Shown: positions 4,700 through 60,799 of the stretch, piece after piece
How the letters are laid out: each line of letters opens with the position of its first letter
Numbering within the stretch: position 1 is the stretch's first letter
Source of the DNA: Chiloscyllium plagiosum
Lineage: Eukaryota
DNA length: 64,000 nucleotides
Reading direction: 5' to 3'
NCBI RefSeq assembly: GCF_004010195.1
Contig: NC_057718.1
Span: 8,145,552-8,209,551 of the forward strand
The notes under the pieces: model-generated
The model's input: the letters and a program-made list of their open reading frames with translations, nothing else
The model's database searches: none
What the model was told of the DNA's origin: nothing
Position numbers and translations under genes: made by a program

Positions 4700-6212
4700 G
4701 TATATAAAAGGGAACAGAATCATTAAGATGAATGCTGGTCCCTTGGAAGATGAAACCAGAGAGTTAATACTGGGGAACACTGAGATGGTAATACCTTGCC
4801 TCAGTTTTCACGGTGGAGGACAATCATACCATTCCTGTTAGAATGGGCAAATCAGAGGCAATAGAAAGGGTAGAACTAAGAACAATCACCATCGAGAGGG
4901 AAAAGGTACTCAGCATACTATTAGGATTGAGGGCAGACAGGTCTCCTAGGCCTGATAGCATACATCCAAGGGTATTAAAGGAAGTGGCAGCAGAAATGGT
5001 GGATCCATTGGTTACTATATTCCAAAATTCCCTGGACACTGGAAAGGTTCCAGTGGATTGGAAAAATGCTAATGCAATGACCTTATTCAAAAAAGGAGGG
5101 AGGCAATATGTGGGAAATCATGGACCAGTTAGTTTAACATCTGTAGTTGGGAAAGTGTTAGAATCAAACATCAAGAAAGCAATATCAGGACATTCGGAAA
5201 GTCAAAATGTTATCCATCAGAGTAAGCATGAGTTTACAAAGGGCAAATCATGTTTGACTAATTTGCTGGAGCTCTTTGAAGATGTAATACGCAAAGTGGA
5301 TAATGGGGATGTTGTACACGTAATTTATCTGGACTTCGAGAAGGCATTTGATAAGGTGCTCCACAAAAAATTAATTCACAAGGTTGGATCATATGGGATT
5401 GGGGTAATTTATTAGCATGGATAGATGATTAAATGGTGGAGTGGACTTGATGGGCCGAATGGCCTTACTTCCACTCTTATGTCTTATGGTCTTATGACTG
5501 GCTGATGGACAGAAGACAGAGAGTCGGGATAAAGGAGATAATTTCTGGATGGCAGAAAGTAACTCATGGGATGCACAGGGTTGGGTCCTTGGGCCCTAGC
5601 TATTTACAATCTATATTAACAATTTGGATGCAGGGATGGAAGGCTCTGTAGCCAAATTTGCGGATGACCCAAAAATGCAGGATGGTAAATTGCAAAGAGG
5701 AAATGAAATCCTTACAAATGCATATAGATAAGTTAGGAAAGTGGGCAGTTCAGAGGATGTTCTTGAGATTGATCCCGGAGATGTTGGGTTTGTCATATGA
5801 ACAGACACTGAACTGTTTAGATCTACACTGTCTCGAATTTAGAAGAATGAGTGATCAAATTCAGAATGAAAAAAGGTCTGGATAAAATAGGCATGGAGCT
5901 GATGCTTCCTCTTGTGGGACATTCTAAGATAGGACATCATAGTCTTGGGATAAGGGGGAGCAAATTTCAAACAGAGTTGAGGGGAAACTACTTCTCCCAA
6001 AGGGTTGTGAATTTGTGGGAATTCACTGCCCCGAAGTGCGGTGGATGCTGGATTAAATTTACAGAGGGCTTAGACGGATTTTTAATTGACAATAGGTTGA
6101 AGGATTATAGGGAGAAGGCATAAAAATGGGAGGGAGGAACATATCAGCCCTGATTGAATGGCAGATCAGATTTGATGGGCCGAAAGGCCTAATTCTGCTC
6201 CAATACGTTATG
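4700..6212 (+). mobile_element. CR1 LINE ORF2 remnant (RT region to 3' end), internally deleted
   Basis: ORF 4813-5415 with SPRPDSIHPRVLKE, PVSLTSVVGKVLE, KSCLTNLLE, YLDFEKAFDKV; KFADD at about 5655; C-terminal FSQRVVNLW. Confidence 0.92.
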
Positions 6213-9049: not shown

Positions 9050-9365
9050 TAGATATAGGACAGATGCCAGAGGTAGTTTCTTTACTCAGAGAGTAGTAGG
9101 GGTGTGGAATTCCCTGCCTGCAACAATAATAGACTTACCAACTTTAAGGTAAAAACAATAACTGCAGATGCTGGAAACCAGATTCTGGATCAGTGGTGCT
9201 GGAAGAGCACAGCAATTCATCATCAACTTTAAGTACATTTAAATGGTCATTAGGTAAACATATGGATGAAAATGGAATGGTGTAGGATAGACAGGCTTCA
9301 GATTGGTCAGCACAATATCGAGGGTCGAAGGGCCTGGACTGTGTTGTAATGTTCTATGTTCTATG
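9050..9365 (+). mobile_element. CR1 3' end carrying a PLE mini-insert
   Basis: TTCTTTACTCAGAGAGTAGTAGGG...TTCTATGTTCTATG tail; same subfamily as 55180-55595. Confidence 0.8.
9149..9223 (-). mobile_element. PLE terminal mini-insert with 10-bp TSD
   Basis: CTGCAGATGCTGG...GTGCTGGAAGAGCACAGCA flanked by CAACTTTAAG at 9139-9148 and 9224-9233. Confidence 0.8.
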
Positions 9366-14019: not shown

Positions 14020-15523
14020 CCTTAAAGACAGAAACAGGGAAATATATTACAGGGAACAAAGAAATGGCAGAAGAATTGAATTGGTAATTCAGATCTGTGT
14101 TCACTGGGGAAGACACAACAATCTCCCTGAGGTAACAGTGGCTGAAGGACCTGAATTTAAGAGCATTTACATTTGCCAGAAATTGGTGTTGTTAGGTCTG
14201 AAGGTTGATAACTCTCTGGGGCCTGATGGTCTACATCCCAGGGTACTGAAGGAGGTGGCTCGAGAAATCGTGGATGCGTTGGTGATTATTTTCCAGAGTT
14301 CGATAGATTCGNNNNNNNNNNNNNNNNNNNNNNNNNNNNNNNNNNNNNNNNNNNNNNNNNNNNNNNNNNNNNNNNNNNNNNNNNNNNNNNNNNNNNNNNN
14401 NNNNNNNNNNNNNNNNNNNNNNNNNNNNNNNNNNNNNNNNNNNNNNNNNNNNNNNNNNNNNNNNNNNNNNNNNNNNNNNNNNNNNNNNNNNNNNNNNNNN
14501 NNNNNNNNNNNNNNNNNNNNNNNNNNNNNNNNNNNNNNNNNNNNNNNNNNNNNNNNNNNNNNNNNNNNNNNNNNNNNNNNNNNNNNNNNNNNNNNNNNNN
14601 NNNNNNNNNNNNNNNNNNNNNNNNNNNNNNNNNNNNNNNNNNNNNNNNNNNNNNNNNNNNNNNNNNNNNNNNNNNNNNNNNNNNNNNNNNNNNNNNNNNN
14701 NNNNNNNNNNNNNNNNNNNNNNNNNNNNNNNNNNNNNNNNNNNNNNNNNNNNNNNNNNNNNNNNNNNNNNNNNNNNNNNNNNNNNNNNNNNNNNNNNNNN
14801 NNNNNNNNNNNNNNNNNNNNNNNNNNNNNNNNNNNNNNNATGAAGGTAAGCATGCAGGTACTGCAGGTAGTGAAGAAGGCTAATAGCATGCTGGCCTTCA
14901 TAACAAGAGGGATTGAGTATAGAAGCAAAGAGGTTCTTCTGCAGCTGTACAGGGTCCTGGTGAGACCACACCTGGAGTACTGTGTGCAGTTCTGGTCTCC
15001 AAATTTGAGGAGAGACATTCTGGCTATTGAGGGAATGCAGCGTAGGTTCACGAGGTCAATTCCTGGAATGGCGGGATTACCTTACACTGAAAGACTGGAG
15101 TGACTGGGCTTGTATACCCTTGAGTTTCGAAGATTGAGAGGGGATCTGATTGAGACGTATAAGATTATTAAAGGATTGGACACTCTGGAGGCAGGAAACA
15201 TGTTTCCGCTGATGGGTGAGTGCCGAACCAGCTTAAAAATACGGGGTAGACCATTTAGGACAGAGGTGAGGAGAAACTTCTTCACCCAGAGAGTGGTGGC
15301 TGTGTGGAATGCTCTGCCCTAGAGGGCAGTGGAGGCCCAGTCTCTGGATTCATTTAAGAAAGAGTTGGATAGAGCTCTCAAGGATTGTGGAATCAAGGGT
15401 TAAGGAGATAAGGTAGGAAGAGGATACTGATTAAGGATGATCAGCCATGATCATATTGAATGGTGGTGCAGGCTCGAAGGGCAGAATGGCCTACTCCTGC
15501 ACCTATTGTCTATTGTCTATTGT
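14020..15523 (+). mobile_element. Relatively young CR1 ORF2 spanning an assembly gap
   Basis: GPDGLHPRVLKEVA before the gap; LYRVLVRPHLEYCVQFWSP and RNFFTQRVV after it; (CTATTGT)3 tail. Confidence 0.92.
14312..14839. other. Assembly gap
   Basis: Run of N. Confidence 1.
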
Positions 15524-18029: not shown

Positions 18030-18132
18030 AAGAAATCAAGATTAGAGTCATGCTGGAAAAGCACAGCAGGTCAGGCAGCATCCAAAGAGAAGGAAAATCG
18101 ACGTTTCAGGCAAAAGCCCTTCATCAGGAATG
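18030..18132 (-). mobile_element. PLE mini-element with hammerhead core
   Basis: Minus strand CAUUC CUGAUGA A GGGC-UUUU-GCCU GAAACGUC. Confidence 0.75.
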
Positions 18133-21581: not shown

Positions 21582-22378
21582 GATTCCTTCCGCTCTTGAT
21601 CCCCGCCCCTCCAATCGCCACCAAGACAGAACCCCACTGGTCCTCACTTACCACCCCACCAACCTCCATATACATTGTATCATCTGTCACCTCCATATAC
21701 ATTGTATCATCTGTCNNNNNNNNNNNNNNNNNNNNNNNNNNNNNNNNNNNNNNNNNNNNNNNNNNNNNNNNNNNNNNNNNNNNNNNNNNNNNNNNNNNNN
21801 NNNNNNNNNNNNNNNNNNNNNNNNNNNNNNNNNNNNNNNNNNNNNNNNNNNNNNNNNNNNNNNNNNNNNNNNNNNNNNNNNNNNNNNNNNNNNNNNNNNN
21901 NNNNNNNNNNNNNNNNNNNNNNNNNNNNNNNNNNNNNNNNNNNNNNNNNNNNNNNNNNNNNNNNNNNNNNNNNNNNNNNNNNNNNNNNNNNNNNNNNNNN
22001 NNNNNNNNNNNNNNNNNNNNNNNNNNNNNNNNNNNNNNNNNNNNNNNNNNNNNNNNNNNNNNNNNNNNNNNNNNNNNNNNNNNNNNNNNNNNNNNNNNNN
22101 NNNNNNNNNNNNNNNNNNNNNNNNNCTTGACCTCCTTCCACCTATCGCATTTCCAACGACCCTCCCCAAGTCCCTCCTCCCTACCTTTTATCTTAGCTTG
22201 CTTGGCACACTTTCCTCATTCCTGAAGACGGGCTCATGCCCGAAATGTTGATTCTCCTGCTCCTTGGATGCTGCCTGACCTGCTGCGCTTTTCCAGCAAC
22301 ACATTTTAAGCTCTGATCTCCAGCATCTGCAGTCCACATTTTCAGCTCTGATCTCCAGCATCTGCAGTCCTCACTTAC
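21582..22378 (+). mobile_element. Penelope-like element 3' part spanning a gap
   Basis: DRTPLVLTYHPTN (compare DRVPLVLTY in 47166-47813); hammerhead-like CTGAAGACGGGCTCATGCCCGAAATGTT at about 22222; duplicated tail. Confidence 0.8.
21716..22125. other. Assembly gap
   Basis: Run of N. Confidence 1.
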
Positions 22379-22459
22379 CCCTTCTGTATACCCAATATGT
22401 AGCTGATAGGATTGATATATGTGAATCTACAGTGGCATGTGAGAGTATCCTAGATACTG

Positions 22460-22670: not shown

Positions 22671-23936
22671 TCAATCCAAACAAAGTCTCAACAAAGAAAT
22701 GAAATGGATGGACTGGCATTGAATTAGGCATCTGAAAAGACAATGACAACCATCCTAATGAGTGCAAGATGTAAAATGTCAACAGCATGGTCTCTGTAGA
22801 ACGAACCTTCTCTCAGTACTGCACTGATGTGTCATTGTGGGCTTGAAAAGGATCTGGAGCCACCTGGCTCAATCAAGAGTGCACCCACAGACCCACAGCT
22901 AAACTGTAAAGCCATTGTTTATTTCAATCATGGTTGACCAAGGCATTGTTGTGGAGAAAATTCATTAACACATGCAACAAACAACACAGATTCACACATA
23001 GAGACCCAGTCTCTGCAAACAAAAAGCATATCTCCACGCCTTGTGCCATTTTTAATCGCCTGGGATCTTGAGGAGCCAATGGTTCCATATTATTTTCTCT
23101 ATGGCAATGTCGCAGCCAATCAGAGTCCACTTGTGAATGATTTTGCATATTTTGTCCTGTTGTATAAATTCTTGCGATTGTTTGAAATTTGGCATTCTTG
23201 TTTTGGTCCTGATGTGTGCATGGCAAATTGTTTTCCTGATACGTCTCTATTTTCAGCCAAGTTCAAGTTAAGAACTTCATTGATTTCTTGGTGTATCTGG
23301 ATTGTGAAATGCTAGTCATTTCTCCTTTTTTTGCTGTCATCCCCTGTTTACGGCCTAGTTCCAGACCATATATTGCCTTCTTGCCCTGCACTCTGAATTC
23401 AAAGTAAATATTCAATGTGGAAGAAAGTGAATCAGCACATCAGCAGAAAACATAATGAACTCTTGCGCAAATCCTGCAGAGGCGGAATCAGCCATTGTTG
23501 GAACGTAATTAACCTTCCTACCCTGAGGCGTGCTCCACCCAGAGGACACAGCTGTAAGAAAAACAGCCGAATCGCCAAAAAACCCGGCCCCAGTCAGATT
23601 GACATGTTCCCTCACTGTTGGATAACTGCTGAGGCGGCTCCAAGCGATCAAAGGAAATCACTGTTCACCAGCAACTGCAGCTGAATCAGAGTTTCATCTT
23701 CATAACTGAAGAAGGAAGCGTGGCTGGATGAGAATTGTAATAGTGAAGTGAACTATAATAGGCACGGTGGTTCAGTGGTTAGCACGGCTGCCTCACAGCA
23801 ACAGGGACCCTGGTTCAATTCCACCCTCAGGTGACTGTCTGCGTGGAGTTTGCACATTCTCCCTGTGTCTGCGTGGGTATCCTCTGGGTACTCCAGTTTC
23901 TTCACACAGTCCAAAGGTGTGTAGTTTAAGGGGATT

Positions 23937-24066
23937 AGGTGAAAATGAGGACTGCAGATGCTGGAAACCAGAGTTTAGATTAGAGTGGTGCTGGAAAAGC
24001 ACAGCAGGTCAGGCAGCATCCGAGGAGCAGGAAAATCGACGTTTCGGGCAAAAGCCCTTCATCAGG
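23937..24066 (-). mobile_element. PLE mini-element with 11-bp TSD
   Basis: TTAAGGGGATT at 23926-23936 and 24067-24077. Confidence 0.85.
24034..24066 (-). ncRNA. Minimal hammerhead ribozyme core
   Basis: Minus strand C CUGAUGA A GGGC-UUUU-GCCC GAAA CGUC GAUU; helix I is mostly lost by truncation. Confidence 0.6.
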
Positions 24067-24477
24067 TTAAGGGGATTGGTCATGCTAAATTTCTCATGAA
24101 TGTGCAAGGTAGGTGGATTAACCACAGGAAATGTAGGGTCACAGGGATGGGGTGAGATGCCTCTTTGAAGGGGCACTGTTGACTCAAGGGGCTGAATAGC
24201 CTGCTTCCACGCTGTAGGGATTCTATGAGTCAATGATATGTTCCATCACAGCGATATTAACCCCAAAGCAAGTCAACAACTTCCCTGCTTTCGTTTTCCA
24301 TCTGTGGAGAGTGTGATATTTGTAGATGTTTCAGTTTGATCCTGCACTTCCATACGGCAGTTCCACAGAGCTCCAGTTCAACCAGGTTGAGAATCTGTTG
24401 TTTTTGTTATCCGAGTGGATATGGCTGGTATTGATGCAAAGACAGTATTTCTGCTACAAATGAGAAAAGAACTTTGA

Positions 24478-39410: not shown

Positions 39411-40299
39411 TTGTGGTAAGAGAAAGTTGGCATGTGGTATGGTGATAGAGGAACAGCCGATATTAGATTGAATGGTGGAGCAGGGCTCAATGGGCCAATG
39501 GCCTATTCTTGTTCGTATTTTCTGTATTTACATGATACATCTATTCAATTTCCTTTCTTACCGAACAAACACTGTCAAATTCTGTCTTGTAAACTATAAT
39601 TGAACCATAGTATTCACAGCTTTTCTTCAAAAAATATTTCAAGGATGTCAGTCATTGGTAAGGCCAGTGTTTGCTGCTCAACCCTAATTGCCCATAAACG
39701 GAGTGATTTGCTCGGACCATTTCAGAGGGAAGTTAAACATCAGTCACGTTGTTATTGGTATGGAAGTCACATCCAGGTAACAACGGCTGATTTCATTCAA
39801 GGACATTAGTGAATTAGATGGGCTTTTTATAACAGAGTTGAGAGTGTGGCACTGGAAAACCACAGCAGGACATTTCGGGCAAGACCCCTTCATCAGGAAT
39901 GAAGCTTTTTTAACAACCAATGCCATTTGCTGTTGTCACTGTTTATTAGACCTGGCTTTCAAATTCAGCTTTATTAAATTTCACCTCATACTCTGGTGGG
40001 ATTTGGATCCACATTACCCGGTGACATTAACTTAACACCGATCACATTGACATTCCCACCACTCTTTGTGTAAAGCAATTAATCCTCATTTTCCTCCTAA
40101 ACATTTATCTGCAATAATTTTTGTTTATTCCTTCATAGGATATGGACATCACTGACTGGGCCAGCATTAATTAACCTTCCCTTAGCTTACTTGGGGCTGT
40201 TTAGTGTCAACCACATTGCTGTGGGTCTGGAGTCACATGGAGGCCAGACCAGGTAATTACGGCAGATTTCCTTCCTCAAAGGACTTGGTGAACCAGATA

Positions 40300-40663
40300 G
40301 GCCTGGGACCCTTTAACCTCATGGCATCAACATCGACTTCACCAGTTTCTAAATCTCCCCTCCCCCCAGCCTCACCCCAGATCCAACCCGGCACCACCAT
40401 CTTGACCTGTCCATCTTCCTTCCCACCTACCTGCTCCACCCTCCCCACCGACCTATCACAATCAACCACCCACCTATCGCCTTCTCACCTGCCTTTTCCC
40501 AACCGATTTATCTCTCAGCCTCCTTCCCTCTCCACATTCCTGATGAAGGGCTTAATCCCGAAACGTCGATTCTCCTGCTCCTCGGATGCTGCCTGACCTG
40601 CTGTGCTTTTCCAGCGCCACACCTTTCAACTGACTCTTCAGCATTTGCAGTCCTCACTTTTTC
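40300..40663 (+). mobile_element. Penelope-like 3' fragment with hammerhead, nested in a SINE
   Basis: Similar to the end of the minus-strand GIY-YIG region at about 46940-47000; CAUUC CUGAUGA A GGG-CUUAAU-CCC GAAA CGUC at 40535-40567. Confidence 0.8.
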
Positions 40664-45369: not shown

Positions 45370-46440
45370 TAATGCCTGTCAATACTAAGAAAGAGGTGAC
45401 CTTGGGTGTCTTGAGAAACACTGAAGTAGATAAGTCCCCAGGATCTGATGGGAATCTAGAGCTGAAAATGTGTTGCTCGAAAAGCGCAGCAGGTCAGGCA
45501 GCATCCAAGGAACAGGAGAATCGACGTTTCGGGCATAAGCCCTTCTTCGTCGATTCTTCTGTTCCTTGGATGCTGCGCTTTTCCAGCAACGCATTTTCAG
45601 CTCTGATCTCCAGCATCTGCAGCCCTCACTTTCTCCTGATGAGATCTATCCCAGAGAGGCAAGAGAGATTTCTAGTGCCATGATGGAGATCTTTGTATCC
45701 TCTTTAGCCACAGGCCAGGTCCTGAAAAGCTGGAGAATAGCCAATGTTGATCCTTTGTTTAAAAAAGGCAACAGAAGGATAATCTTGGAAATTATAGGCT
45801 GGTGAGCCTTACATCAGTGGTAGGGAAATTTTGGGGGAAGATTCTTAGGGACAGGATTTATTCACATTTGGATAAGAATGGACTTATTGGGGATAGTCAG
45901 CATGGCTTTATGGAGAGGAAGTCTTATCTCACAAACTTGACTGAGTTGTTTCAAGAAGTGATAAAAGTGAATGATAAGAGAAGTTGTCTACATAGACTTT
46001 ACTAAAGCAGTTGTCAAGGTCTCTCATGGTAGGCTGGTCTAGAAAATTAAATCACATGGAATTCATGATGGGTTGGCAACTTAGATTCAAATTGGTTTGG
46101 CCATAGAAGTCATAGGATAGTTATGGAGGGGTTTTCTGCCTGGAGGTCACTGAGCAGTGGTGTTCTGCAAAAATTATTCTGGGACCTCTGTTCTTTGTCA
46201 TATATGTGAACGATTTGGATGAAGGTTTTGGTGGTCTGAATAGCAAGTTTGCAGACAACATGAAAATTGGTGTGGTTGGGGTTGGCGAGGGAGATTATCA
46301 AAGGATGCAGCAGGATATAGATCAGTTGGAAAGCTGGGCAGAGAAATGGCAGATGGAGTTAATCCAGACGAGTGTGAGCTGATGCAATTTGGGAGGTCAA
46401 ATGCAAGAGGAAGGTATACAGTCAATGGAAGGACCCTTAA
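45370..46440 (+). mobile_element. CR1 RT remnant
   Basis: VDKSPGSD, SLTSVVGK, QHGF..KSYLTNL and KFADN motifs. Confidence 0.85.
45454..45635. mobile_element. PLE fold-back mini-element inside CR1
   Basis: Flanked by CTGATGGGA (45445-45453) and CTGATGAGA (45636-45644); removing it restores DKSPGSD-IYPR. Confidence 0.85.
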
Positions 46441-46662: not shown

Positions 46663-46679
46663 TATAGGCAAGCAGGAGG

Positions 46680-48470
46680 CTACAAGAACACAGCAAGGCC
46701 AGGCAGCATCAGGAGGTGGAGAAGTCGACATTTTGAGTGTAACCCTTCTTCAGAACTGGGTGTGGGTGTGGTGGGGAGCTGCAGATAAAGGGGGTGGCGG
46801 GGCAGGGTGGTGAAGTGGGGATGAGTGAAGATAGGAAGAGGGTACGACCTGATTAGTCAATGGGAGGAATGGATCTGATTGGTGGCTGGGAGGGAGAGGG
46901 GCTGGGAAGGGAGTCGGGGGATGAGGAAGGAGGTTGTTTGAAATTAGGGAACTCAATATTGAGTCCTCTAGGCTGCAGACTGCCCAGGCAGAAGATGAGA
47001 TGTTGATCCTCCAACTTACAATTCGGTTCATTGTGACAATAGAGGAAGCTGAGGATGGTCATGTTAGAAAGGAAGTGGGAAGGGGAATTAAAATGGGTGG
47101 TGACTGGGAGGTCTGGTTGGCCCCTGCGGGCCTGGCTGAGATGCTCGGCCAACCGTTCCCTAAGTTTACGTTTGGTCTCCCCGATGTAGAGAAATCCACA
47201 TGGGGAGGATCTGATGCAGTAAACTAGGTTGGAGGAGAGGCAGATGAACCTCTGTCTCACCTGGAAGGACTGTTTTGGGGGTGAGTGCAGGGTGTACTGG
47301 CAGGTTTTGCATCTTTTCCAGTTGCAAGGGAAGGTACCTGAGGGTTCGGGGGGTTGGTGGGGATAGTGGCACAAACCAAGGATTGGCAGAGGGAACGGTC
47401 CTTGCAGAAGGCAGAGAGGGATGGAGGAGGGGAAGATGTTCTTGGTGATGGGGTCTGGTTGGAGTTGGCGGAAAGTTTAAGGATGATGTGTCGGATGCGG
47501 TGGTAAGTGAGGACAAGGGGTAAGTGAGGACAAGGGGTACTCTGTCTTTACTGCACCGTGGGAAGTGGTTTAAGAGCAGGGGAATGGAAGCAGTGTGGCG
47601 GTGGGCTATCTGGATGACAAAGGGGGGCAAAGCACTTTGTTCAAAATAGATGGATATCTGGGATGCTTGGGAGTGGAATGTCTCCCCATCCGAGTGGATG
47701 TGGCAGAGGTGGAGGAAGTGGGAGGACGGGATGGAGTTCTTGCAGGATACTGAGTGGGAGGATGTATAGTCCAGGTAGTTGAGAGAGTCTGTGGGTTTAT
47801 AGTAAATGTCCATCTGAAGACTGTTGCCAGAGCTGAAACTAGAGGGGTCAAGAAAGGGGAGGGAAGTGCCTGAGATGGAGCAAGTGAATTTGAGGGCGGG
47901 ATGGAAGTTGTGGGCGAAGTCAATGAACTGCTCCAGTTCAGCCTGGGTGCAGGACCATGCACCGATGCAGTCATCGATGTAATAGTGGTAGAGTTGGGGT
48001 ACAGTGCCTGTGTAGGTACTGAAGAGGGGCTGTTAGACATAGCTTGCAAGGAGGCAGGCATAACTGGGGCTCATGGCCACCCCCTGGACTTGGAGGAAAT
48101 GGGAGGAGTTAAAGGAAAAGTTATTAAGGGTGAGGACCAGTTCAGTGAGGCGGTGGAGGTGATGCTGGATGATCTGGAGGCCATCCTTATGGGGATGTGT
48201 AATAAGGACTGCATGTCCATAGTGAAGATAAAGCGCTGGGGGCAGGGGAACTGGAAGCTACTGAAGAGATGGAGGGCGTGGTTGGTATCGCGGATGTAGG
48301 TGGGTAGTGCCTGAACCATAGGGGAGAGGATGGAGCCAAGGTAGGAGGAGATGAGTTCGGTGGGGCAGGAGCATGCAGAGACGAGTCAGCCAGGGTAGTT
48401 GGGGAGCAGGTAGAACCGGGCAGTGCGGGGCTGGGGGACTATGAGATTGGAGGTGGTGGAGAGGAGATCT
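46680..48470 (-). mobile_element. Penelope-like element (Neptune-like), frameshifted RT plus GIY-YIG
   Basis: TYIRDTNHAL, FTMDMQSL, DIYYKPTDS..YLDYTSSH, CNWKRCKTC, NLVYCIR...LYIGETKRKLRERLAEH, GLNIEF; decayed hammerhead at about 46722-46755. Confidence 0.92.
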
Positions 48471-48781
48471 ATGTAACCCGGGTAAAGAAATTTCTCCTCA
48501 TTTTGGTCCTAAATGTCTTACCCTGTATCCTCAGACGGTGGTCCCTTGGTTCTGACCAGCCCACTCCCATATCTGTTGACTCCCAGACAGACCTAACATT
48601 TGTCTAGGCGCTGAGGAGGTCAAGGGCAGGTAGTAGGCCAGCACGGGGTGTCCAGGTGGATGGGGTGTGTTGGAGGCATGAGAAGGGGTTGTCAGAGGGT
48701 GGGCGAGAGTCTTGGTTAAAGAAGTAGGCGCAGAGGCGAAGGCGGCAGAAGAATTGTTCGATGTCACGCCGTGTGTTGAAC

Positions 48782-48872
48782 TCATTCCTGAAGAAGGGCT
48801 TATGCCCGAAACATCGATTCTCCTGTTCCCTGGATGCTGCCTGACCTGCTGCGCTTTTCCAGCATTTTCAGC
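48782..48872 (+). mobile_element. PLE mini-element with hammerhead-like core
   Basis: CAUUC CUGAAGA A GGGC-UUAU-GCCC GAAA CAUC GAUU. Confidence 0.75.
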
Positions 48873-49359: not shown

Positions 49360-49528
49360 TCAGTGTGGTGCTGGAAAAGCACAGCAGGTCAGGGCAGCAT
49401 CCGAGGAGCAGGCATAAGCTCATAAACATCGATTGCCCTGCTCCTTGAATGCTGCCCTGACCGGCTGTGCTTTTCCAGAGCCACACCCTCGACTCTGATC
49501 TCCAGCATCTGCAGTTCTCACTTTCTCC
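49360..49528. mobile_element. PLE fold-back mini-element
   Basis: CTGGAAAAGCACAGCAGGTCAGGGCAGCAT inverted as ATGCTGCCCTGACCGGCTGTGCTTTTCCAG; both arms share an extra G/C. Confidence 0.8.
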
Positions 49529-49969: not shown

Positions 49970-50097
49970 GGAGAAAGGTGAGACTGCAGATGCTGGAGAG
50001 TCAGAGTCAAAAAGTGTGGTGTTGGAAAAGCACAGCAGGTCAAGCAGCAACCGAGGAGCAGGAGAGTTGACGTTTTGGGCATAAGCCCTTCATCAGG
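49970..50097 (-). mobile_element. PLE mini-element with 11-bp TSD (one mismatch)
   Basis: AAGGTAGGGTA at 49959-49969 and AAGGTAGAGTA at 50098-50108. Confidence 0.8.
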
Positions 50098-52643: not shown

Positions 52644-53404
52644 TATACAAAAGGACTCTACCCCCACAGCTCTCTCTGTGGCAAGAAGTTCCAAAGACTC
52701 ACAACCCTCTGAGAGAAGAGATTCCTCCTCATCGCTGTCTTCAATTGGTGCCCCTTTATTCTGAGACTCTGGCTTCTGATGCTGGACTCTCCCACGAGGG
52801 GAAACATTTCCTCAGCACTGACCCTGTCAAGACCCCTGAGAATCTTTTCTGTTTCAATGGCATCACCTCTCAGTCTTCTAAACTCCAGTGGGTAGAGTTG
52901 CAATTTGTTTAATGTTTGCTCATAAGGCAACCCTCCAGAGCAGGGATCATCTGTGAACTGCCTCCAGTGAAATAATGTCTTTCCTTAAGTAAGGGGATCA
53001 ATCCAAATCAGTGGTGACTTCAAAGTTACTGTTAATACTGTAAATACTCATTGCCCTGGATTGAAGATCTGTTTAATGGGTCAAAAATTAACAAAGATGA
53101 ATTTTTGCAGGCCGACCTGTTATATTTGCTGCATCCTAATGCCTATTGACTACAGTGAAGCACTGGGGCCTGTTTCGCTATACAGGGGTCCCCTTTGGGA
53201 TCATGGCAGCTGCAGCCTTATTTCAGAGATCCATGAACCAAATCCTGCAGGGACTAAGGAGGTACAATGCTACCTTGATGACATCTGGCGGTGCAGAAGA
53301 AGTGTACTGGAGGAATTCTGGAGAAGACCCGAAAGCAGCTGCAAACACAAGAGCTGTAAAAAAAAAAGTGACTTCTTCCAGGACTAAACCGAATACGTAG
53401 AGAA

Positions 53405-53501
53405 GTCAAGATCAGAGCGGTGCTGGAAAAGCACAGCAGGTCAGGCAGCATCCGAGGAGCAGGAAAATCGACGTTTCAGGTAAAAGCCCTTCATCAGGAA
53501 T
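53405..53501 (-). mobile_element. PLE mini-element with perfect 14-bp TSD
   Basis: GAATACGTAGAGAA at 53391-53404 and 53502-53515. Confidence 0.88.
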
Positions 53502-53592: not shown

Positions 53593-53704
53593 CCTCATGA
53601 ATGGCTTATGCCCGAAACAGCGATGCTCCTCCTCCTCGGATGCTACCTGACCTGCTGTGCTTTTCCACACTCGCCTCCAGCATCAGCAGTCCTCACTATT
53701 TCCT
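53593..53704 (+). mobile_element. PLE mini-element with 8-bp TSD
   Basis: ACTAATGT at 53585-53592 and 53705-53712. Confidence 0.75.
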
Positions 53705-56455: not shown

Positions 56456-56635
56456 TAGTCTAACGATGAGATATTGTTCCTCCAGCTGGTGTTGTGATTC
56501 GCTGGAGCACAGAAGCATGCCGAGGAACTGACAAGGGGGCATGTGAGCAGGATGCTGTGTTGAAATGACAGGCTACAGAAAGGTCGGGGTCATGCTTGGG
56601 TGTGGACCTGAGGTGTCCTGCGATTGGCTGGTGCA

Positions 56636-56753
56636 GAAATGGGTACTGCAGATGCTGGAGATCAGAGTCAAGAGTGTGGTGCTGGAAAAGCACAACAGGT
56701 CAGGCAGCATCCAAGGAGCAGGAGAATCGCTGTTTCGAGCCAGAGCTCTTCAT
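56636..56753 (-). mobile_element. PLE mini-element with 8-bp TSD
   Basis: CTGGTGCA at 56628-56635 and 56754-56761. Confidence 0.78.
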
Positions 56754-57540
56754 CTGGTGCACTATCTTCTCTGGATCAACGGTCTTACGGAATGATTGGT
56801 ACAATTGTTAAAACACTCATCCAATGTGTCCGAGGTAGGGGTCACTCATTATTGAGTCGACAGACTTCTGGCCATGTTCCGAAACACATCTCTGGTGCAC
56901 ATGCTATTTAAAAGGAAGTTACAAACCACATTTGACTTGTTGCTACCTGAACATATGCATGAGATTGTTGAGAAGAATCAATAATCACAAATGCCCAGAA
57001 GGGAAACGGACTCCGTTTATCTCATCAGGGTGACCAATATTCAGCCTAGAGTGACAATGCTACTGCCAAGTGGGCACCTGGCTTGAGTTGATGCCATATC
57101 CAACACAATCCAAACCCAGGATGAGATCCTTGTGGCTATGGCATGCTGACCAGCTGTTAGCAGCACACCTCCAAGTGTTGGAACCAGCCATCCCCATAGA
57201 GCCTGAATAAGGCAGCAGCACAATGCCTTTGCAGCAAGCTGCTGTAGTCAATTCGGGTACCAGCCCTGGGGAAGAGACTGTCTCTGTTCCCTTGGGGTGA
57301 GCCATCTTTACCTGAGGTTCCGAAGATTGCAAAGGTGAATCCTCCATCAGAGGTAGGATGACAGATACCCACTGAATAGAACTCTCTAATGAAATGGCGC
57401 CTCCTATTGTCGTACCTAATGGAGATGGCTATCATGACCATATTAATAGTTTTGTTGTTTGTACACCCATGCTGTGTTTGGAACTATGTAGACATTGGGG
57501 TGGTTTGTTCAAGGGAAATTTTGAAAATAAAGGGGAGGAG

Positions 57541-60290: not shown

Positions 60291-60508
60291 GGAGAAAGTG
60301 AGGACAGCAGATGCTGGAGATCAGAGTTGAGAGTGTGATGCTGGAAAAGCACAGCAGGTCAGGCAGCATTCGTGGAGCAGGAAGATCGACGTTTCGGGCA
60401 TAAGCCCTTCATGAGGAATTGGGGGGGGCTTATGCCCGAAACGATGATTCTCCTATCCTCGGATGCTGCCTGACCTGCCGTGTTTTTCCAGTGCCACACT
60501 CTCGACTC
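60291..60508. mobile_element. PLE fold-back mini-element
   Basis: CGTTTCGGGCATAAGCCC inverted as GGGCTTATGCCCGAAACG; the left arm has the extra tail. Confidence 0.85.
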
Positions 60509-60799
60509 ACGTCTTTTGTAGAAGTGCCTAGCAACAACAACCAGGTGTAAATGGCAAGCTGTTTCAATTTTATGTATCTATGGTAGAGACATGTCAGCAG
60601 CGGGGCCAGCATTTATGGATCTCATCATTTGCCCTGGGGAAAGATGGAGCTGGTGGTGTAATGCTGCAGTCTTTGGGCTGTAAGTAAAGCAGGCTTTTGA
60701 ATTTAAAAGGATAAAGGGTAATAAACTCTCCACATCAGCCCTGTCAAATCCTTTAAGAATCTTTCATGCTTTATAATAAGACTCTAACATTTTTGCAAC

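Follow-up and report, generated by a model that had tools for sequence, protein, structure and literature searches.

Short hammerhead-bearing inserts in the genome of the shark Chiloscyllium plagiosum as probable by-products of Penelope-like elements, with a preferred 5′ end at the ribozyme

Mobilisation of Penelope-like elements (PLEs) is the least understood of the retrotransposon mechanisms, and the only biochemical study that we found is that of Poseidon PAc from Anolis (Frangieh et al., 2024; PMC11167929). In vitro, synthesis on this element is initiated internally, both target strands are extended and product length follows the 5′ end of the RNA; the stretch between the two start sites of the reverse transcriptase (RT) constitutes an optional tail. 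Solo minimal hammerhead ribozymes were read as probably truncated PLEs in the part of the work of Cervera and De la Peña (2014; PMC4209133) available to us. Here we describe a 64,000-nt stretch of the genome of the shark Chiloscyllium plagiosum (contig NC_057718.1, positions 8,145,552 to 8,209,551 of the forward strand; hereafter the window), in which a 130-nt insert at window positions 23937–24066 represents a class of short hammerhead-bearing inserts whose 5′ ends cluster at the edge of the ribozyme. The most fitting view is that every PLE family throws off such inserts as by-products and that they are not a separate mobile family. Solo minimal hammerheads as probable truncated PLEs and opposite-strand pairs were already on record (2014), as were, by 2021 or before, the tail and inverted copies and, in 2024, internal initiation; searches of the literature returned no preferred 5′ end at the hammerhead edge and neither module-only inserts nor palindromic pairs of them described as a class.

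The Anolis element resembles the layout proposed here for the shark in that its hammerhead lies at the junction of the pseudo-long terminal repeat (pLTR) and the open reading frame (ORF), in its two RT starts 30–40 nt apart, approximately 110–150 nt past the start of the hammerhead, and in the cutting and extension of both DNA strands, which is inferred here; hammerhead cleavage was not needed in Anolis (PMC11167929). In the shark, the corresponding stretch, hereafter the module, comprises a minimal hammerhead plus approximately 100 nt and ends approximately 37 nt before the ATG, whereas the Anolis ORF begins inside the hammerhead. Neither a 5′-end cluster nor module-only insertions were reported for Anolis, and a search of the supplement likewise returned nothing on 5′ ends (PMC11167929). 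The hammerheads of Cervera and De la Peña (2014; PMC4209133) are like those of the shark in CUGANGA, one extra nucleotide, helix II, GAAA, palindromic positions 15.2–16.2, the lack of a closed helix III and a short helix I, and also in massive copy number and arrangement, mostly single with some close together on opposite strands; the available part of that paper contains no 5′ boundary at the ribozyme, no two 3′-end classes, no target-site duplications (TSDs) around inverted pairs and no cartilaginous fishes. For PLEs in general, the available portion of Craig et al. (2021; PMC8557442) describes copies that are heavily truncated at the 5′ side, pLTRs formed by partial tandems, a neighbouring inverted copy that is 5′-truncated, and a 30–40-bp tail, often at one end only, and places the transcription start of Penelope and of a Chlamys element within the pLTR; the shark inserts present the same architecture in miniature, with arms of 95–130 nt and a preferred 5′ end. 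Animal non-LTR retrozymes (Cervera and de la Peña, 2020, PMC7229834; Li, Clavereau and Pollet, 2026, bioRxiv 10.64898/2026.07.22.740005) are likewise ORF-less, hammerhead-bearing and PLE-related, with monomers and tandems both counted. They differ, according to the available sections of both papers, in being defined by head-to-tail repeats yielding unit-length circular RNA, whereas the short inserts of the window are single or inverted, never tandem, and are without sequence between the tail and a next hammerhead.

The insert at 23937–24066 is flanked by a perfect 11-bp TSD, and its features are as follows.

23926–23936 and 24067–24077, no strand: left and right copies of the TSD TTAAGGGGATT, from the sequence and a TSD scan.
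23937–24066, minus strand: single 130-nt module from hammerhead to tail, with its 5′ end exactly at CCTGATGA and a long-tail 3′ end (model 1–129, 147 bits).
24037–24065, minus strand: putative core of a minimal hammerhead of type I, composed of CUGAUGA and an additional A, helix II (GGGC/GCCC), GAAA, the palindrome ACGU, and then C and the predicted cleavage site.

The minus strand of the insert opens with CCTGATGA-A-GGGC-TTTT-GCCC-GAAACGTC and closes with CATTTTCACCT. It shows every trait of PLE minimal hammerheads: CUGAUGA is followed by one extra nucleotide, G10.1 pairs with C11.1, an ACGU palindrome replaces helix III, and helix I is 4 bp long. A 29-nt pattern of this core had 7 matches in the window at ≤3 mismatches and 0 matches in 100 of 100 dinucleotide-preserving shuffles, in agreement with the claim of an earlier reading made from the letters alone (the sequence-only reading) that the inserts start at or near a hammerhead core. 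Among 42 aligned copies, helix II was paired in 88.7% of cells with changes on both sides in three of its four pairs, helices I and II together showed both-side changes in 7/8 pairs, and the first pair of helix I was CG in 31 copies and UA in 6; the covariation score was 0.281 against 0.193 in shuffled alignments (0/500 as high), and partners slid out of register scored ≤0.113. Cofolding of two copies of the hammerhead RNA gave an alternative pairing instead of the canonical dimer, which speaks neither for nor against cleavage. A check with Infernal and the Rfam hammerhead models, proposed by the sequence-only reading, gave no match at gathering score in the whole window and none at E≤10 over 23800–24200, which is expected because a minimal hammerhead is without a closed helix III; the sole Rfam match around the insert at E≤10, RAGATH-18, was judged to be chance. 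The module thus carries a putative minimal type I hammerhead of the PLE kind, whose self-cleavage is a prediction. No open frame runs through the module in this family, the frames from the ATG of CUGAUGA and from position 1 both meeting stops when read by eye.

A profile of the 130-nt module, built from 23 copies, was applied to the window and to 20 random 10-kb stretches (fixed seed), together 264 kb of the 3.56-Gb genome. The resulting 76 matches, or arms, under-count truncation in the last third of the module, since arms below approximately 40–50 nt escape the profile, and classes of 5′ ends were assigned by reading of the flanks. Among the 44 best arms (≥60 bits), 35 reach model position 5 or lower; 25 of these stop 0 to approximately 6 nt upstream of CCTGATGA, two run approximately 20 nt further and eight continue into pLTR and ORF. 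The other nine begin at positions 6–40 and are mostly second arms of pairs jointed in the helix II hairpin. A 12-nt interval holds 25 of 34 5′ ends (binomial p ~1e-15 or lower against a uniform distribution), bearing out the earlier claim of clustering beyond random truncation. The 20 best genome matches to 23937–24066 gave a similar picture, with 14 ending at the edge, 3 at −30 to −45 and 3 long. Near-full-length arms also start there, namely L055 (no pLTR before it), L068, L072 and L074 (L numbers denote individual loci), 4 of the 9 arms reaching that far; in this respect the edge acts as if it were where the element itself begins. Small inverted stubs or fillers occur at the 5′ junctions of L002, L020 and L040_2079, as would be expected if RT had reached the end of its template and then jumped. 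At L055:138–153, the edge-starting arm is preceded by AGGTAAAA, the reverse complement of the last 8 nt of the module, which may be an abortive second-strand start or chance. The edge is not the cleavage site of the ribozyme: cleavage is predicted between positions 29 and 30 of the module, whereas no more than 3/76 arms begin at model 21–30, plus L073 at approximately 30. A 3′ splice site at the edge was rejected, no AG being present there (read by eye).

The 3′ ends fall into two classes, at model 127–130 in 24/44 and at model 85–101 in 16/44 of the matches of at least 60 bits. Ends bounded by TSDs lie at approximately 90–95 and at 128–130, 35–38 nt apart, and in 5/6 young pairs with TSD-defined ends the tail is present on one arm only. 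By analogy, these classes match the published two internal RT start sites and the 30–40-bp PLE tail. Among the 3′ flanks of 52 complete modules, none runs on into shared sequence, and no 5′-terminal module was caught in this set. A UCCAGCA motif precedes both 3′-end sites, at module positions of approximately 72–78 and 103–109 (for example, window 23958–23995, minus strand). Its spacing to the two 3′ ends is unequal, approximately 21–23 nt and 26–27 nt, and for this reason a duplicated RT start signal is not claimed.

Of the 76 arms, 36 are arranged in 18 head-to-head pairs; these pairs and the two 3′-end classes were missed by the sequence-only reading. TSDs were scored as length minus twice the mismatches, on which scale none of 56 displaced controls reached 10 and five reached 8. 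Scores of at least 10 were obtained for 17 of 58 insertion units, supporting the view that the inserts are retroposed, and in 8 of the 18 pairs such a TSD (12–16 bp among the whole-pair TSDs) encloses the pair as a whole; therefore, a pair is one insertion event. In LINE-1 twin priming, both target strands are primed and inverted structures likewise arise within one TSD; there a different part of one RNA is inverted, whereas the two arms of a shark pair cover the same part. A symmetric pair at L038:2265–2531 has both arms at model 1–129, 100% identical over 126 nt, within a 15-bp TSD and with 10 nt of extra filler at one end, and must be of very recent origin or else have been homogenised as a palindrome. 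The 200 kb of random genome contained 48 matches in 18 of the 20 stretches, covering 2.3% of bases; extrapolated from these 200 kb, the genome would hold roughly 0.6–1.1 million matches, and the inserts may make up approximately 2% of it. Palindromic pairs are a source of inverted repeats able to disturb assemblies.

In the window itself the profile had 28 matches. The sequence-only reading had listed related inserts at eight places; all eight were recovered, each beginning at model 1 or 2, and the remaining 20 matches are additional. It assigned TSDs to five inserts; here, the evidence was graded strong for 23937–24066 (score 12) and 53404, and moderate for 49971, 53594, 56635 and 39830, and the scan found none at 18034 or 48787. 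Its observation that the inserts share sequence with the 3′ ends of longer Penelope copies stands, 22221–22379 and 40539–40663 both continuing upstream. The copies are as follows.

18034–18128, minus strand: single arm, 5′ end at the hammerhead edge (CATT followed by CCTGATGA), short-tail 3′ end at model 95, no TSD found.
39830–39897, minus strand: single, internally deleted arm whose start is at the hammerhead edge; TSD borderline, score 8.
49971–50097, minus strand: single arm, model 1–128; TSD 10/11, score 9.
53404–53498, minus strand: single arm, 5′ end at ATT followed by CCTGATGA (−3), short-tail 3′ end at approximately 94–95; perfect 14-bp TSD GAATACGTAGAGAA, score 14.
53594–53703, plus strand: single arm, model 2–129; TSD ACTAATGT, score 9.
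56635–56756, minus strand: single arm, model 2–126, compensatory change GAGC/GCUC in helix II; TSD CTGGTGCA, score 8, overlapping the first 4 nt of the element.
48787–48865, plus strand: short arm beginning at the hammerhead edge and forming a head-to-head pair with the next entry, an ORF-bearing PLE arm reaching to 48786.
46678–48786, minus strand: PLE 5′-truncated within its ORF, with RT and GIY-YIG frames between 48786 and 46853 (as far as 46937 by tblastn) and a hammerhead module of older type at 46753–46678, approximately 100 nt past the ORF.
22221–22379, plus strand: 3′ module of a long PLE copy, with pLTR and ORF upstream, 21716–22125 masked as N and a piece of the tail duplicated; a PLE RT fragment lies approximately 520 nt upstream on the same strand.
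40539–40663, plus strand: 3′ module of a long copy, with pLTR-like homology over at least approximately 230 nt upstream.
45451–45636, both strands: head-to-head inverted pair, minus arm model 4–104, plus arm model 26–129.
49360–49528, both strands: head-to-head inverted pair, arms model 34–87 and 11–129, junction within the helix II hairpin.
60291–60514, both strands: head-to-head inverted pair, arms model 2–129 and 7–102.
9148–9219, minus strand: 5′-truncated arm of the young family, model 56–129; TSD 11/12.

The link to PLEs is provided by the proteins encoded upstream. A Pfam GIY-YIG match was obtained at window 46853–47476 (minus strand), the adjacent frame of 288 amino acids matches shark proteins carrying RVT_1, and among named proteins the closest come from two carpet sharks and are uncharacterised. 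At L009, L011, L028, L036 and window 46853–48786, the PLE ORF, with its C-terminal GIY-YIG part, ends approximately 100–170 nt upstream of a hammerhead on the same strand, so that the PLE order of RT followed by GIY-YIG in one frame, upstream of the terminal repeat on the same strand, was recovered. In a young family whose copies are 97–100% alike, walking upstream gave a layout of hammerhead module, 37 nt and an ATG opening the ORF; a walk from protein P0001 led to one largely masked copy (L041) and two truncated or abutting an inverted arm (L042, L043). Further features of PLEs, the optional tail of 30–40 bp, the adjacent inverted 5′-truncated copy and TSDs of variable length, were all found. 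Partial tandems forming pLTRs were found outside the window (L061, L067, L071 and L100–L106) and were not seen for the short inserts themselves. Across families, identity is approximately 82–94% in the module against 72–85% in the pLTR upstream, which fits a functional RNA part.

The sequence-only reading had suggested, as one of two options, a distinct SINE- or retrozyme-like family, and this option was not supported. In a tree of 64 modules, the three supported clades each mix short and long copies (9 and 3, 26 and 15, 4 and 5), and the short/long label changes 18 times against a shuffled mean of 17.4, that is, without clustering; with 93 columns and 46 of 60 forks unresolved, the tree argues only at the level of families. 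At that level every PLE family has short and long copies, and the short inserts are therefore unlikely to be one SINE or retrozyme lineage. No full head-to-tail tandem was present among the 76 arms, the only same-strand neighbour within 100 nt being a 34-nt tail duplication at 22346. No Pol III-type head (tRNA, 5S or 7SL) was detected, as no Rfam family reached gathering score in the whole window and ARAGORN found 0 tRNA genes there. The short inserts and palindromic pairs should be annotated as PLE fragments and not as new SINEs.

Head-to-tail hammerhead units, the feature that defines retrozymes and that the short inserts do not show, occur elsewhere in the genome. They are ORF-less units of the young family, arrayed head-to-tail in groups of 2–4 (L100, L102–L106, L071, L067), each unit consisting of the module, 5′ untranslated region (5′UTR) positions 1–124 and the last 33 nt of the pLTR, approximately 250–320 nt in all. 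L100 (G000:C17:46331737–46335086, minus strand), for instance, contains four modules with periods of 248, 281 and 323 nt. The joint of 5′UTR and pLTR was present at 18 dispersed places with 100% identity over 84–86 nt, and in 5/5 fetched places the inherited joint is followed by a second joint, 140|1 in two, 118|26, 97|1 and 72|31. The tandem units are a recently mobile, retrozyme-like, non-autonomous PLE derivative. They fit the proposal, made in the available part of the preprint, that animal non-LTR retrozymes are PLE derivatives (bioRxiv 10.64898/2026.07.22.740005).

Other rearranged PLE copies were encountered. L101 (G000:C5:52065305–52067654) contains an internally deleted PLE unit of approximately 740 nt between two modules, the first codons of the ORF being fused to its C-terminal end. 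At L065 and L076, ORF or ORF-end sequence runs straight into the module at position ~85 or ~46, joints which look like template switches in reverse transcription. L059 (G000:C12:59376995–59377454) contains a 50-nt segment, derived from where the ORF region begins in young-family PLEs, repeated three times in tandem.

For the origin of the 5′ edge we favour, at about even confidence, the reading that the short inserts are miniature insertion products of autonomous PLEs, copied from a template RNA that starts at the edge. In this scheme, the PLE RT would, by analogy with Anolis, start internally at module position ~92–95 or 128–130, giving short- and long-tail 3′ ends, copy towards the 5′ side and run off a template RNA whose 5′ end coincides with the hammerhead edge, −6 to +1 of CCUGAUGA. 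We infer a start of the RNA at the edge, and its likeliest origin would be pLTR-driven transcription initiation there; any copy keeping pLTR and module could then serve as a source of RNA. Nicking and extension of both target strands, primed on both as in Anolis, would place two arms head-to-head inside one TSD, and the short inserts, being without a pLTR, would probably be dead on arrival. In most of 18 long copies, a TTTATCT-like box lies approximately 31 nt upstream of the A in YYATTCC and approximately 37 nt upstream of module position 1 (by eye, uncounted), and such boxes recur across families whose pLTRs are otherwise only 72–85% alike. The spacing of box and YYATTCC is that of a TATA box and an initiator, which suggests a promoter of this kind.

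A more specific version is possible, and we put it forward tentatively: the edge would be the true 5′ end of the PLE template, ribozyme first, and a dimeric RT-RNA particle would initiate internally on whatever RNA bears this 5′ module and prime both strands, with jumps between the 3′ pLTR and the 5′UTR, held by paired hammerheads, creating the ORF-less tandems. If it were true, several hundred thousand inserts and pairs would constitute a nucleotide-resolution record of PLE transcription starts, RT starts and template jumps, and retrozymes would be seen being born from an active vertebrate PLE. As they stand, the inserts appear to show internal initiation, tail and both-strand extension in vivo and in very large numbers. 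If the edge is an RNA start, the PLE hammerhead would lie at the very 5′ end of the transcript, which would explain the solo minimal hammerheads flooding many animal genomes.

Several observations weigh against a template starting at the edge. Both promoter-like motifs, TATA-like and initiator-like, are weak, and overlap with helix I offers another possible reason for the conservation of the initiator. The TTTATCT box is missing from the ORF-less tandem units, in which no more than 33 nt of the pLTR is left, but these units have been recently mobile. When RNA reads were laid on L067, run X20 gave 0 reads, and the 1181 reads of run X19, which comes from a single-cell polyA library and is thus poor material for locating transcription starts, showed no pile-up of read starts; 277 of these run upstream across the edge into unlike sequence. 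Depth across the edge steps 8.8-fold in X19 but 4.6-fold in X15, a contig run of unknown kind, and the step in X19 may reflect copy number only. The cluster itself is much weaker in the young family F4, whose hammerhead is identical over its first 35 nt: among 20 complete modules, 4 stop at the edge and 13 run on. The young family contributes 0/7 edge ends to the unbiased sample. Among 23 copies holding 5′UTR, 11 end inside the module against 4 at the edge (the rest comprise 2 with ends at −33 and −62, 3 that run on as tandems, 2 recombinants and 1 masked copy). Some arms end slightly upstream, at approximately −12, −20, −22, −30, −33, −38/−45 and −62.

The main rival, rather doubtful in our judgement, is that template RNAs are long and that RT stops, falls off or switches template at the edge, because of a folded dimeric ribozyme or of protein binding to the module; the sequence-only reading, too, had offered the fold as the site of a strong RT stop. 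A position-specific stop would give an edge cluster both in 3′-terminal modules (25/35) and in the 5′-proximal modules of long arms (4/9), as observed, and template switches are frequent near the module, as seen in the inverted pairs, the recombinant joints of L065 and L076 and the variable 5′UTR|pLTR joints. The Anolis hammerhead is, moreover, protein-assisted, and RT binds within the module (PMC11167929). The position of the ends counts against this explanation: on its way from 3′ to 5′, RT would first encounter the 3′ side of the fold, near position 33, but the ends lie past its far, 5′ side. In addition, family F1, to which the insert at 23937–24066 belongs, and F4 are identical over the first 35 nt but differ in edge ends, 14/20 vs 4/20 (Fisher p = 0.004, with a possible bias as the queries were chosen differently). 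In Anolis, products shorten with the 5′ end of the RNA from −126, whereas mutants of the hammerhead leave product size unchanged (PMC11167929).

It is unlikely that the short inserts form a self-propagating non-autonomous lineage, SINE- or retrozyme-like, with an internal promoter and PLE proteins acting in trans. Their very large numbers (the 48 matches and 2.3% of bases in the random 200 kb) would suit such a lineage, as would the retention of a complete minimal hammerhead and of the presumed RT-binding part by inserts that start with ATT, the presence in this genome of a mobile ORF-less PLE derivative, and a minimal template of approximately +20 to +172 in Anolis PAc (PMC11167929). Against this stand the mixture of short and long copies in all three supported clades, poorly resolved as the tree is, and the lack of both full tandems among the 76 arms and a Pol III-type head; the conserved upstream box is also absent from the short inserts, and X19 reads mostly run into unlike flanks (share 0.97), as passive read-through predicts.

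Loss after insertion, by deletion or by pLTR-pLTR recombination as in solo LTRs, is very improbable: the direct repeats of PLE pLTRs could recombine and internally deleted units exist (L101), but the TSDs abut the short insert itself, a solo pLTR would retain the part upstream of the hammerhead that the short inserts are without, and inverted pairs inside one TSD cannot be produced in this way. The RNA of R2 carries at its 5′ end an HDV-like ribozyme, for which the cleavage site coincides with the 5′ edge of the ribozyme; cleavage by a hammerhead takes place close to its 3′ side and cannot make the edge observed here. That self-cleavage sets the 5′ end of the copied RNA is barely credible: a ribozyme does lie at the boundary, and HDV-like ribozymes define the 5′ ends of some non-LTR elements (work cited in the available part of PMC4209133), but a type I hammerhead cuts after GUC, at module 29/30, which is 29–35 nt downstream of the observed ends, and Anolis reads neither begin nor end at the cut site, cleavage being dispensable there (PMC11167929).

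Stretches of masked N lie inside or beside the internal parts of PLEs at window 14312–14839 and 21716–22125 and at L015, L031, L041, L061, L062, L081, L083, L100, L102 and L105, and hide the upstream region of several long copies. A further RT fragment, unrelated to the modules, is present at window 4792–5415 (plus strand; Pfam RVT_1, E = 3e-10).

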